Assembly: GCA_035714085.1 (NCBI GenBank)
Contig: DASTMP010000285.1
Span: forward strand, 3,659-67,658
DNA: 64,000 nt
From: Blastocatellia bacterium
Lineage (GTDB): Bacteria; Acidobacteriota; Blastocatellia; RBC074
Reading direction: 5' to 3'
Shown here: positions 39,586 through 42,372 of the stretch, piece by piece
Position numbering within the stretch: the first letter of the stretch is position 1
Layout of the letters: every line of letters begins with the position of its first letter
The notes under the pieces: generated by a model
What the model was told of the DNA's origin: nothing
The model's database searches: none
Seen by the model: the letters and a program-made list of their open reading frames with translations, nothing else
Translations under genes and position numbers: made by a program

Positions 39586-42372
39586 GTGTTTATGGTGATG
39601 ACGCCTGTACGCTACAAACAGATCAAATCCATCTTTCAATCGGCCGTCGACCTTCCACACTCTGAACAAGCAATCTTCTTGGACAAGGCTTGTTCCGGTG
39701 ATGAAGGACTGCGGCGCGAGGTCGAAAACCTCCTCTCTTCTCATGGACAGGTTGAGGATTCCATTGAGCTCATCGCTTCGGAGGTGGCGGCGACAATGCT
39801 GGCCGGGCCTCAATCTGGATCTCTCATAGATCAGCAGGTTGGGGCTTACCAGATTATCAACCAGATCGGTCGGGGAGGAATGGGCGAGGTCTATCTGGCG
39901 CGCGACACGCGGCTGGGCCGTCAGGTCGCGCTCAAGCTGTTGCCGCCGCGTTTCACCGAAGACGCTCGGCGCGTCCAACGCTTTCGCCAGGAAGCGCGAG
40001 CCGCCTCGGCTCTCAATCATCCGAACATCATGACCATTCACGAGATCGGCGAAGTGGAGACCGCGGTCGGCGCGCTGCATTTCATCGCCACCGAGTTCAT
40101 CGAAGGCCGCACGCTGCGTGAGCTGATCAGAGACGGAAGGATGAGTCTCGGCGAAGCGCTCGAAGTGGCGATGCAGGTGGCCAGCGCGCTCTCAGCCGCG
40201 CACGCCGCCGGGATCGTCCACCGCGACATCAAGCCTGAAAACATCATGCTTCGGCCTGACGGTTACGTGAAGGTTTTGGATTTCGGACTCGCCAAGCTTG
40301 GGTTGGAGAGTGGGGAGTTGGGAATCGGGAATCGGGAATCGGGAATCCGAGAGCAGGTCGCTTGTCCCCATTCCCCATTCCCCACTCCCCACTCCCTAGT
40401 CTCGACTGATCCCGGGATGGTGCTTGGTACAGTTAGCTATATGTCGCCGGAGCAGGCGCGCGGGCTTGAGACTGACGCGCGGTCGGACATCTTCAGTCTT
40501 GGTATCGTGCTTTACGAGATGATCACTTCGCGTCGCCCGTTTGAAGGCGAGACGCCGAGCGACGTTATTGTGGCGCTACTCAATCAGGAGCCGCCTTTCG
40601 CCGAACACGCGCCCGATCTCCCCGGCGAACTTCGGCGCCTGGTCAGCCGGATGCTCGCCAAAGATTGCGCCGGGCGGCATCAAACCGCTGATGAAGCGCG
40701 GCGAGCGCTCAAAAGGTTGAAGCAGTGTCTGACGCCGGCGGGAGATTTCAAGACGCGCGAATTCAGCGGCCTGGCGAGCCTCGCGCGACGTTTCGGACGC
40801 GCGGGCGCGAGCGAAGATTACAAAACAGTCTTGACCACTACGCGGGAACCCCGGCCATCGAAATCCAGCGCCTTCTTCGCCGGACGATTCACACGCTCGC
40901 CATTGCGCGTCTCGCTGGCGCTCATGGCGCTGGCGGCGCTCATCGCCGCTGCGATTCTCGGGCTACAATGGCTCAATCGGCGAGATTCGCATATCGATTC
41001 GATCGCGGTGCTGCCATTTAAACCCCTGGTGGCCGACGCCCGCGATGAGGCGTTGGAGATGGGAATCGCCGACACGCTGATCACCAGATTAAGCAGGCTG
41101 CAAAAAATCACGGTACGGCCATTCAGCGCCGTGCGCAGATTCACTGCGCTCGACCAGGATCCGGTCGCGGCGGGGCGCCAGTTGCAGACACAGGCCGTCC
41201 TCGAAGGCAACATCCAGAAGGTGGGCGACAAAATCCGCGTCACAGCGCGGTTGATCGACGTCGGTCGCGGCAGGACGATTTGGACGCAGCAATTCGACGA
41301 GCGATGGGGTGACATCTTTGCGATTCAGGACGCCATCTCGCAGCGAGTCGCCGATGACTTGATAGTTACTTTGACCGGCGAAGAGCGCATCGAACTGGCC
41401 AAGAACTACACCGCCGACCCGGAAGCCTATCGGCTCTATGTGGACGGCAGTTATCAGTGGAACAAACGCACTCCAGAAGGCATCCGCAATGGACTCGAAG
41501 CTTTCCGGAAAGCCGCTGAGAAAGACCACGGCTATGCGCTGGCTTATGTCGGAGTGGCCAACGCCTACATCACGCTCGGCACATATCACCTGGCCGCGCC
41601 AAAGGAGGCGCTGCCATTGGCCCGCGAGGCTGCCGCGCAGGCCTTGAATATAGACGAGAGCCTGGCCGAAGCGCACACTGCGATGGGCAAGATCATCAGC
41701 GACTATTACTGGGACTGGCCGCTGGCCGAGAAGGAATTCAGGCGCGCGCTCAAATTGAAGCCCAATTATCCGATCCTGCATGATTGGTATTCCGCTTTTC
41801 TGGCTTATATGGGCCGATTTGATGAAGCTATCCGCGAAGCCGAGCTTGAATTGGAACTCGACCCGCTTTCGCCGATCGCTCATACCCGTTTAGGCATTGC
41901 GCTCTATCTGGCGCGCCGCTACGACCAGGCCATACCGGTTCTGCAGAAGACGATTAGTCAAGCCCCGAATTACACTCCCGCTCGACTTTTTCTAGGTCTT
42001 TGTTACTCGATACAAGGCAGGCGCGAGGAGGCGCTCGCTGAGTTTCAGAATGGACAGGCCATTGCCCCTAAAAATTCGGATTTCATCTCGCTGCTTGGTA
42101 ATGTTTCAGCGCTGGCAGGCAGGCGTGACGACGCGCGCCGTTATCAGGAGCAGTTGAATGAGTTGGCAAAGCGCGCCTATGTCTCGCCGTTCGCGCAAGC
42201 CACAATCTCGGCCGGTTTGGGCGATAATGACGCGGCCTTTATGTGGATGGAGAAATGTTTTGAGGAACGGTGCTCTGCGCTCGCCACACTGAAAACGGAC
42301 CCGAGATTTGACGTCTTTCGCCAGGACACCCGGTTTGAATTATTGATGCGTCGCGTCGGGTTCGCGCAGTGA
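39586..42372 (+). CDS. Ser/Thr protein kinase with TM segment and C-terminal TPR-like sensor domain
   Basis: Hanks motifs GRGGMGEVY, VALKLL, HRDIKPENIML, DFGLAK, SYMSPEQ. A TM helix (LALMALAALIAAAILGL), then an about 500-aa TPR/adenylate-cyclase-like periplasmic region. The activation loop carries an about 30-aa insert encoded by a palindromic repeat. Confidence 0.8.
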   Translation: MFMVMTPVRYKQIKSIFQSAVDLPHSEQAIFLDKACSGDEGLRREVENLLSSHGQVEDSIELIASEVAATMLAGPQSGSLIDQQVGAYQIINQIGRGGMGEVYLARDTRLGRQVALKLLPPRFTEDARRVQRFRQEARAASALNHPNIMTIHEIGEVETAVGALHFIATEFIEGRTLRELIRDGRMSLGEALEVAMQVASALSAAHAAGIVHRDIKPENIMLRPDGYVKVLDFGLAKLGLESGELGIGNRESGIREQVACPHSPFPTPHSLVSTDPGMVLGTVSYMSPEQARGLETDARSDIFSLGIVLYEMITSRRPFEGETPSDVIVALLNQEPPFAEHAPDLPGELRRLVSRMLAKDCAGRHQTADEARRALKRLKQCLTPAGDFKTREFSGLASLARRFGRAGASEDYKTVLTTTREPRPSKSSAFFAGRFTRSPLRVSLALMALAALIAAAILGLQWLNRRDSHIDSIAVLPFKPLVADARDEALEMGIADTLITRLSRLQKITVRPFSAVRRFTALDQDPVAAGRQLQTQAVLEGNIQKVGDKIRVTARLIDVGRGRTIWTQQFDERWGDIFAIQDAISQRVADDLIVTLTGEERIELAKNYTADPEAYRLYVDGSYQWNKRTPEGIRNGLEAFRKAAEKDHGYALAYVGVANAYITLGTYHLAAPKEALPLAREAAAQALNIDESLAEAHTAMGKIISDYYWDWPLAEKEFRRALKLKPNYPILHDWYSAFLAYMGRFDEAIREAELELELDPLSPIAHTRLGIALYLARRYDQAIPVLQKTISQAPNYTPARLFLGLCYSIQGRREEALAEFQNGQAIAPKNSDFISLLGNVSALAGRRDDARRYQEQLNELAKRAYVSPFAQATISAGLGDNDAAFMWMEKCFEERCSALATLKTDPRFDVFRQDTRFELLMRRVGFAQ
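40306..40398 (+). repeat. G-rich/C-rich palindromic element embedded in-frame in the kinase activation loop
   Basis: gagtggggagttgggaatcgggaatcgggaatcgggaatccgag - loop - tccccattccccattccccactccccactccc. Same family as 52191..52270. Confidence 0.5.

Follow-up and report, generated by a model that had tools for sequence, protein, structure and literature searches.

The window analysed here is a stretch of 64,000 nt from a Blastocatellia bacterium (contig DASTMP010000285.1, positions 3,659 to 67,658 of the forward strand), and our subject is a hairpin-forming tandem repeat, hereafter the cassette (40300-40404), which lies in frame within the activation loop encoded by a Ser/Thr protein kinase gene (39586-42372, + strand). 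The kinase open reading frame (ORF) codes for 928 aa and in a protein database search was a 100% match to P0001 (926 aa, start at 39592), annotated as 'protein kinase [Blastocatellia bacterium]' of the phylum Acidobacteriota. It combines an N-terminal Hanks-type kinase domain (Pfam PF00069 Pkinase, E=2.4e-44, 152 bits against a cut-off of 31.7) with a predicted membrane-spanning helix and C-terminal TPR repeats, for which Pfam families were also matched, and its best solved relative is PknB of M. tuberculosis (E=2.5e-59). The catalytic motifs VALK, HRDIKPEN, DFG and SPE are complete in the translation and invariant in our alignment A2; as judged from its sequence, the gene product is a Hanks-type Ser/Thr protein kinase. 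Directly 5' of it lies a gene for an extracytoplasmic function (ECF) sigma factor (38998-39570, + strand; Pfam Sigma70_ECF, E=1.6e-61), and this sigma-kinase pair is kept in every relative examined (L001, L002, L004, L006, L202, L203, L206 and L207). On balance we regard the cassette as probably selfish or neutral hairpin repeat DNA, which is tolerated as a disordered insert of the activation loop and is subject to fast turnover.

The cassette and its excess over hairpin-free kinases

The cassette is bounded on its 5' side by the codons for DFGLAKL (40279-40299), whose columns are invariant in A2, and on its 3' side by the conserved codons for TDPGMVLGTVSYMSPEQ (40405-40455), which contain TDPG; all of these features lie on the + strand. 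Its 105 nt, or 35 codons, encode the peptide GLESGELGIGNRESGIREQVACPHSPFPTPHSLVS and make up one hairpin from the first codon to the last. A G-rich 5' arm (40304-40347), consisting of GGAGAGT, GGGGAGT, a single T and four GGGAATC units and stop-free in all reading frames, is followed by a spacer of 17 nt that forms the hairpin loop (40348-40364, CGAGAGCAGGTCGCTTG) and by a C-rich 3' arm (40365-40403) made of two TCCCCAT and two TCCCCAC units and then TCCCTAGTCTC. The inverted repeat proper pairs 40306-40344 with 40365-40403, 39 nt each, with 82% complementarity, and Tandem Repeats Finder recovered period 7 in both arms (GGGAATC x4.0 at 40320-40347 and TCCCCAC x4.6 at 40365-40396, with 96-100% matches). 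The arms are built of unlike units, GGGAATC standing opposite CCCCAYT with 1-2 mismatches per 7 nt. The RNA fold of 40300-40404 is nevertheless paired end to end at -60.8 kcal/mol, and the DNA fold reaches -30.8 kcal/mol (z=-5.2), with 0 of 200 shuffles as good. The cassette is stop-free and in frame within the Pkinase-domain ORF, with the SPE codons at 40444-40452 and 59 aa from the D of DFG through the Q after SPE. An earlier note on this DNA had claimed an in-frame palindromic repeat in the kinase activation loop that forms a strong hairpin on the mRNA, and both claims are borne out by the 39-nt arms, the period-7 units, the Pkinase frame and the folding energy. A tryptic peptide spanning the cassette would be, for example, EQVACPHSPFPTPHSLVSTDPGMVLGTVSYMSPEQAR. 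In an AlphaFold (AF2) model residues 232-283 are coil, with a predicted local distance difference test (pLDDT) score of 22-33; as the model derives from a shallow alignment of 18 sequences, has a mean pLDDT of 60.7 and treats the C-lobe similarly poorly, this constitutes weak evidence. No direct repeat of the kind expected from a target-site duplication was found at the cassette boundaries in the window.

Words resembling GGGGAGTGGGGAGT occur eight times in the window against an expectation of 0.31, and all eight fall inside the cassette or inside a second, intergenic hairpin of the same type (52193-52268), in which GGGAATA/GGGAGTG units face CCCCACT/CCCTATT units in arms of 29 nt that are 90% complementary. 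This is a cleaner hairpin than that of the kinase gene (DNA fold z=-7.6 to -9.8), and it fills the gap between the convergent stop codons (52184 and 52280) of a prolyl-oligopeptidase gene (+) and a PhoPQ-related gene (-). It had been described as a terminator-like second copy of the same family: the intergenic copy is real, but it has no T-run and was not called in our scan for intrinsic terminators.

Relative to hairpin-free homologues the cassette is, as far as alignments tell, extra sequence. Alignment to PknB is split in two, leaving 29 cassette residues without a counterpart; the insert maps between PknB residues 168 and 171, and the T of TDPG aligns with PknB T171, which we take to be the activation-loop phosphosite. 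In the 114 nearest database relatives whose loop could be read, the segment from AKL to T(D/E)PG measures 11-23 aa in 81 and 24-56 aa in 33, and among 100 representatives at 50% clustering it is shorter than 24 aa in 87, with hairpin-type peptides in about 5-7. A metagenome scan found no hairpin in 78 more distant soil kinases, counted among the matches listed and comprising relatives of 53% identity or less. The extra stretch of about 30 aa previously proposed therefore stands as such, with the qualification that the hairpin encodes 35 aa and that the excess is 29 aa over PknB and shrinks to about 12-24 aa in comparison with the nearest hairpin-free relatives, which have long loops of their own. 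A long ancestral loop that merely happens to be palindromic would have been expected in repeat-free orthologues as well; these have 11-23 aa and not 35. We also considered short 11-23-aa loops as decayed hairpins and rejected this, since 69 segments of distant kinases fold no better than controls from the same genes (z=-0.13 versus -0.24, p=0.74). The 30-50 aa found at this position in cassette-bearing kinases are not homologous protein sequence. Regulatory inserts of 30-90 aa between DFG and APE are a feature of the NDR/LATS and plant AGCVIII kinases, where they are tolerated and sometimes autoinhibitory. They likewise add residues to a Hanks-type kinase at this structural position, but they consist of ordinary conserved protein sequence, with no hairpin repeat DNA and no swaps between close relatives.

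One site, many cassettes

In all nine long-loop kinases with available DNA, and additionally in L206, a hairpin spans the whole variable segment with the same boundaries throughout. The cassettes of the nine measure 105, 105, 105, 102, 102, 123, 96, 144 and 93 nt and that of L206 84 nt, all of them divisible by 3 and free of stops. This loop is host to at least seven cassette types. Besides the GGGAATC type of the window (type G), the units are GCGGATT/GCGGAAT in L004 (102 nt, RNA fold -55.8 kcal/mol), GCGGATT in L006 (102 nt, -73.6 kcal/mol), the octamer GGAGAGAC in L202 (123 nt, -99 kcal/mol), the octamer GGAGGGAC in L203 (96 nt, -57.3 kcal/mol), GGATGAA in L204 (144 nt, -99 kcal/mol) and GGATGAG in L206 (84 nt, -43.7 kcal/mol), while the cassette of L205 has irregular but fully paired units (93 nt, -60 kcal/mol). 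Removal of the cassette by translational bypass or splicing is unlikely, because the multiple-of-3 lengths and the freedom from stops would be needless if it were skipped. Loops with no cassette and loops with type-G, type-C or octamer cassettes form a natural set of variants within the family, which bears on the importance of the N-terminal part of the loop in bacterial Hanks kinases. As a separate observation, P0019 differs from P0021 at residues about 150-160 by an additional ESGESGS in the loop before the FIATEF strand, which may represent a small insertion of heptamer origin elsewhere in the kinase, at a second position.

One gain is clean: in L206 (P0048), which is nested in a clade of hairpin-free kinases, the hairpin replaces an 18-aa segment of the hairpin-free sister L207 (P0037) with no remnant of it, and no target duplication was seen in this comparison. 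In a tree from which the loop had been masked the cassette types are interleaved. The protein pairs P0012/P0020 (about 95% identity over 920 aa) and P0008/P0010 (about 97%) nevertheless each have unrelated cassettes with sharp boundaries. The same is evident in DNA from the syntenic loci L002, L004 and L006, where L002 and L004 share 91.7% nucleotide identity overall, 96-99% in the windows adjacent to the cassette and about 50% within it. Cassettes are, in short, replaced whole among near-identical orthologues. Candidates for the mechanism are short-tract recombination with an allele or paralogue, replacement from the centre outward, as composite hairpins suggest, and an element-like exchange. 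Two clades with just about 65% identity to each other both contain the type-C (GCGGATT) cassette and its spacer peptide GREDEEDVPS, and two of the three arm differences between the cassettes of L004 and L006 are compensatory double changes.

A second swap site is the spacer between the sigma factor and kinase genes. Here L002 carries a GGGAGTR hairpin (L002:9861-9957), L004 one of GGTGGTT (L004:9892-9999), L006 a composite of GGGAGT and GCGGAAT (L006:9881-9995) and L207 one of GTAGAAA (L207:1895-2000), each of which fills the gap from the stop codon to the start codon. In the composite of L006 the units shift by single bases (GGGAGTA, GGGAGTG, GGGAATT, GGGAATG, CGGAATG), and the gradient is mirrored in the opposite arm. 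The window and L001 have no hairpin between the two genes, which abut (39570/39586).

The cassette of the window recurs in the same frame, at the same length of 105 nt and with a homologous spacer in orthologues of 87-91% identity (clade A) and of 62-65% identity (clade C), the loci of clade C being syntenic among themselves, and the same cassette is present in independent JGI, ENA and NCBI assemblies. By this distribution it is neither a private nor a recent insertion. A 19-nt spacer block of the window is identical to that of L001 at 17 of 19 positions and to that of L002 at 14 of 19; these two orthologues excepted, the spacer is unrelated to those of other same-type copies. Against L002, with a gene 70% identical in nucleotides, the G arm matches at 41 of 47 positions and the C arm at 35 of 39, the spacer (14/19) being at about the gene average, whereas against L001, with a gene 93.6% identical, the C arm matches at just 33 of 39. 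Between the window and L002, four-fold sites are identical at 16 of 19 positions in the cassette, as opposed to a fraction of 0.57 for the flanks and likewise for the remainder of the gene (Fisher p=0.028). Between clades A and C, 27 of 35 cassette amino acids are identical compared with 64-65% for the whole protein. The RNA fold of the type-G cassette weakens from -61 kcal/mol in the window to -47 kcal/mol in L001 and L002, where the cassette is kept and its arms have drifted to non-complementary units. The arms therefore shift fast among close relatives yet stay within a few unit variants, a pattern of repeat homogenisation unlike that of ordinary purifying selection. A recent transfer of the type-G cassette between clades A and C by homologous recombination is not supported: in a test of four-fold-site identity over 60 codons upstream and 40 downstream of the cassette, the flanks gave 0.57 as did the gene, and divergence of the spacer matches that of the gene. 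Among members of clade C, flank identity is uniform at about 0.87 whichever cassette type is present, which makes that comparison uninformative on transfer. The age of the cassette, which is common to clades A and C, is what one would expect of ancestral coding sequence that is palindromic by chance; this explanation, together with that of an assembly artefact, nonetheless has negligible probability in view of fold z-scores of -5 to -10, the lack of excess folding in the hairpin-free short loops and the recovery of the same cassette in the independent assemblies.

The fact that many lineages have been struck at this one site, by no fewer than seven cassette types, and the whole-cassette differences between orthologues of 92-97% identity raise the possibility of an adaptive hypervariable loop. 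Cassettes would then be kept or exchanged for autoinhibition, partner docking or phosphatase access near the phospho-acceptor Thr, the repeat serving as a vehicle comparable to a contingency locus. The coexistence of two cassette types in two clades and the cassette amino acids, which are conserved between clades A and C no less than the whole protein, would agree with such a role. We consider it unlikely, because the peptides are of low complexity, arise incidentally as the units are read in rotating frames and recur as identical heptamer peptides in unrelated enzymes, because four-fold sites are better kept than amino acids, which points to a cause at the DNA level, and because swapping is equally seen in the non-coding sigma-kinase spacer.

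The same conservation of the arms beyond synonymous expectation could instead reflect a regulator acting at the RNA level, in which the mRNA hairpin (-44 to -99 kcal/mol) is selected for ribosome pausing before the C-lobe, that is, after synthesis of the N-lobe and catalytic loop, or for RNase III processing or stability, with the intergenic copies acting as bidirectional terminators or stabilisers. Hairpins are indeed retained with compensatory changes, even where the heptamers have decayed (L205, -60 kcal/mol), and intergenic copies sit exactly between convergent genes. Set against this are the drift of type-G arms to non-complementarity in L001 and L002 with retention of the cassette, the 81 of 114 close relatives that do without a hairpin, the missing T-run at 52193-52268 and the lack of a matching Rfam family, and for the kinase cassettes we hold such a role to be very unlikely. 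An RNA-level role for the intergenic copies is possible.

Distribution, class and origin of the repeat

We scanned one genome per species with the pattern GGGARTNGGGART...AYTCCCNAYTCCC, for which our own calculation gives about two chance matches, and recovered GGGA(A/G)T hairpins at at least 115 genome loci in Nostoc and other cyanobacteria (among them Rivularia, Scytonema, Stigonema and Leptolyngbya), Acidobacteriota, Gemmatimonadota, Chloroflexota, Planctomycetota, Xanthomonadales, Clostridia and others. At least nine of the listed loci, many of them cyanobacterial, lie in frame within Pfam-verified genes, whose products are a pyruvate:ferredoxin oxidoreductase, a RecJ-like DHH protein, the HATPase_c domain of a hybrid kinase, an Eco57I-type enzyme, MutS2, GH57, a P-type ATPase, a valyl-tRNA synthetase and a hydantoinase. 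In these unrelated genes the copies encode peptides of the type GSGEWGVG...PTPHSPLPTP. The in-frame heptamer hairpins of cyanobacteria and Chloroflexota are those of L010, L012, L056, L061, L066, L079, L096, L116 and L117; the Eco57I-type enzymes have several hairpin copies per gene and the P-type ATPase has two sites. In the pyruvate:ferredoxin oxidoreductase gene of Plectonema radiosum NIES-515 (L009:6399-6712) a block of 126 nt, each with a GGGAGT hairpin, is repeated three times head-to-tail with the frame kept, so that a 42-aa peptide occurs three times over. In Xanthomonadales (Dyella, Luteimonas, Xanthomonas, Pseudoxanthomonas and Rhodanobacter; L020, L043, L050, L053, L059, L065, L084 and others), where long stop-free frames are unreliable at high GC, hairpins of GGGAATC/GGGAATG units around GC-rich spacers are common.

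The arms have a strict polarity. Across the window and L007-L121, and considering both strands, the G-rich arm is 5' in 132 matches, and the two C-first matches merely bridge neighbouring G-first hairpins; in 518 kb not chosen by pattern, 11 of 11 detected hairpins are G-first, with periods of 7 and 8 only. Among 61 tandem-unit hairpins, a sample biased by the scan pattern, period 7 is found in 58 and period 8 in 3.

The earlier note had labelled the cassette a repetitive extragenic palindrome (REP) or miniature inverted-repeat transposable element (MITE), implied that its insertion was recent or unique and called it unusual. None of this is supported: the loop is repeatedly colonised in this kinase family, in-frame copies are common in cyanobacterial genes, the same cassette with a homologous spacer is found in orthologues of 63-91% identity and in independent assemblies, and neither a conserved core nor a visible target-site duplication accompanies the unrelated spacers. 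Among the same-type copies compared there is no conserved core or family-specific palindrome, only the units being shared while spacers are unrelated and unit counts vary; there are no defined ends, the outermost units differing between copies; and no parent insertion sequence (IS) was identified, the spacers of same-type copies being unrelated. A search of Rfam 15 gave no match at gathering score but only sub-threshold hits to microRNA precursors, the whole window yielding one tRNA. Assignment to REP or to REP doublets forming hairpins (REPIN) was rejected for want of a family-specific conserved sequence and because this copy lies inside the kinase ORF, the other copies of the window being extragenic, and assignment to MITE because terminal inverted repeats with defined ends, a target-site duplication and a conserved internal sequence are all wanting. 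A G-quadruplex likewise offers no general explanation, since the four G3 runs of the GGGAATC arm are not shared by the GCGGATT, GGATGAA and GGAGAGAC cassettes.

Among known repeats the closest structural parallel is with the short tandemly repeated repetitive (STRR) heptanucleotides of heterocystous cyanobacteria, reportedly described by Mazel et al. in 1990, which our hairpins resemble as heptamers of this kind arranged in a palindrome. STRR sequences comprise a few recurring heptamer types that are very abundant, mostly intergenic and of unknown function; the STRR1 unit CCCCAGT would be one base from the CCCCACT seen here. Head-to-tail arrays of 7-nt units make up our hairpins too, and the GGGA(A/G)T types are found in heterocystous cyanobacteria. 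To our knowledge, however, STRR have not been described as G-first palindromes, as a class that crosses phyla or as in-frame cassettes of kinase loops, and are known instead as tandem arrays used for fingerprinting. In function the closest parallel is with the Rickettsia palindromic elements (RPE), selfish palindromic repeats inserted into coding sequences with the frame kept (Ogata et al. 2000, summarised in PMC10969869); the resemblance is a functional one, and we do not assign the cassette to an RPE family. There, as here, a palindromic repeat occurs in frame in unrelated genes, is read as an extra peptide at sites compatible with the fold and is also found between genes. RPE differ in forming families of about 100-150 bp in which both the sequence and the peptide it encodes are conserved, as opposed to the tandem arms of 7 or 8 nt, unrelated spacers, many unit types and single site repeatedly hit and swapped of the present case; their hosts are Rickettsia, whereas heptamer hairpins are hosted by free-living Acidobacteriota and other phyla. 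REP, with the related bacterial interspersed mosaic elements (BIME) and REPIN, carry a conserved stretch of about 20-35 nt that is specific to each family, and they form doublets linked to a RAYT gene (PMC3116915). They too are short, hairpin-forming and non-autonomous extragenic repeats often placed between convergent genes; in our case nothing is conserved beyond the repeat unit, one copy is coding and no RAYT is known. A text search of the literature did not find the heptamer strings in any context of bacterial repeats. As far as the literature searched goes, the occurrence in Acidobacteriota, the repeated takeover of one kinase-family regulatory loop by at least seven cassette types, the whole-cassette differences between orthologues of 92-97% identity and the strict arm polarity across phyla appear to be new.

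Strict polarity of this kind (132 G-first matches against 2, and 11 of 11 in the unselected sequence) is what terminal inverted repeats would give, and, together with the recurrence of identical unit types at numerous loci across many phyla, it brings to mind a true mobile element of the MITE, REPIN or IS200/IS605 type, moved by an enzyme acting in trans that targets hairpins or the site, with the swaps as excision and re-insertion. The replacement of whole hairpins at two different kinds of site and a TnpB gene near one locus (L003) could be read in the same way. Such an element ought to have a conserved core or termini, and we find none; spacers are unrelated, unit number and mixture vary, no target duplication marks the clean gain of L206 relative to L207, the single-base gradients of composite hairpins look like evolution in place, and no transposase could be linked to the hairpins in the 64-kb window and the short related contigs. 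We accordingly rate a mobile element as quite unlikely.

We favour instead the explanation that the cassette is repeat DNA tolerated by its host gene. The class, as we would define it, has tandem units of 7 nt, sometimes 8 nt, in two arrays that face each other in inverted orientation across a short unique spacer. It is abundant in this Blastocatellia lineage and present in many other phyla. Such repeat DNA would settle wherever selection allows, namely in stop-stop gaps, in stop-start gaps and in the disordered N-terminal part of the activation segment, where hairpins have repeatedly taken over the dispensable stretch from after DFGLAKL to before the T of T(D/E)PG. Within a gene a cassette would survive if no frame through its units holds a stop, if its length is divisible by 3 and if it lies just ahead of the phospho-acceptor threonine, at a position that is flexible in PknB-type loops. 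GGGAATC and CCCCAYT have no stop triplet in any rotation, and GGGAATA and GGGAGTA, which are common intergenic units, contain TAG. Under these three conditions the cassette would be translated as a flexible insert rich in Gly, Ser and Pro that leaves the catalytic motifs untouched; its translation, its tolerance by the kinase and its lack of a function for the host are what we infer.

The hairpin character would be upheld by processes at the level of DNA and not by the needs of the protein. Slippage within arms would presumably give rise to unit homogenisation and single-base gradients, and copying between arms by quasipalindrome template switching would presumably spread the palindrome outward until selected residues are reached. 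Quasipalindrome template-switch mutagenesis (Ripley; Lovett) is a mutational mechanism and not an element family; it would fit the mirrored arm changes, the perfection of hairpins and their outward growth over flanks, but it does not account for the same heptamers throughout genomes and across phyla. That the hairpins end exactly at AKL and T(D/E)PG, and that gains erase the ancestral segment, fits with a palindrome growing outward. Cassettes turn over quickly, being replaced whole between close relatives.

Several observations sit uneasily with this proposal. Recurrence at one site in a protein of 920 aa that has other linkers hints at targeting or at a function beyond a filter of tolerance. 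The conservation of the arms beyond synonymous sites over long distances could equally result from selection on RNA, DNA or peptide. Recurrence of type C in clades of about 65% identity needs recombination or an old polymorphism, neither of which is demonstrable between clades, and slippage with template switching does not by itself explain the same few heptamers across phyla with the G-rich arm nearly always 5'. As a speculation to which we allow an outside chance, the tandem-heptamer palindromes may be an unrecognised cross-phylum class of self-propagating DNA, with a fixed G-5' polarity, units of 7-8 nt and a dedicated activity that makes or moves them. Candidates for such an activity would be a template-directed reaction that adds G-rich repeats at the two 3' ends of a break before these are joined, or a structure-specific recombinase that replaces one hairpin by another. 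Were this the case, the kinase loop and the sigma-kinase spacer would be sites of cassette exchange, and ECF-sigma-linked kinases would have a hypervariable activation loop.

Under our preferred explanation of tolerated repeat DNA, hairpin repeats would be able to overwrite the regulatory loop of a signalling enzyme repeatedly without destroying the enzyme. Cassette residues are also apt to mislead annotation and alignment-based phylogeny. The spread of polar heptamer hairpins, often in frame, from cyanobacteria to Acidobacteriota and Xanthomonadales points to a common undescribed process that generates a class of bacterial repeats long known but unexplained.

Other repeats and neighbouring genes

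Three further hairpins of tandem units were found in the window. An octamer hairpin (27584-27697, GAGAGCGG ... CCGCTCTC, z=-5.8) separates the stops of two convergent genes, one for an EF-hand protein and one for a transaldolase. A heptamer hairpin of TTTTCCG/TTTTCCA ... GGAAAAC (10175-10273, z=-5.2), found by eye and the sole one seen with its pyrimidine-rich arm first, occupies the 5' leader of a second Ser/Thr kinase gene (10292-11782, + strand; Pkinase and WD40), directly upstream of its ribosome-binding site; the activation loop of this second kinase is of the short normal kind, with 31 aa from DFG through PEQ. A degenerate hairpin of five GGTTTCA and 2.4 CCTGGCG units (54437-54527, z=-2.9) is a weak member of the group.

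The gene just upstream of the sigma-kinase pair (37860-38762, - strand) matches the encapsulin shell protein family (Linocin_M18, E=4e-18). In the window and L001 the kinases are 90% identical and the genes flanking the pair wholly different, which implies that the pair occupies a variable neighbourhood. In the clade-C genome of L003 a TnpB-like gene (Cas12f1-like_TNB, L003:5778-7331) lies 2.7 kb upstream of the pair, and at its position L002 carries a full upstream kinase gene.

Longer tandem repeats of other kinds are also present in the window. A unit of 105 nt at 21852-23379 (14.6 copies, 76% identity) apparently encodes TPR-like repeats of 35 aa, and long-period repeats at 7109-7363 (141 nt x1.8) and 16061-16244 (102 nt x1.8) lie in coding-looking sequence. 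Finally, a 12-nt tandem repeat, GGATTGCTGATT x2.8, was seen at 26428-26460 inside the ORF 25984-26997 (- strand), with no partner arm found.

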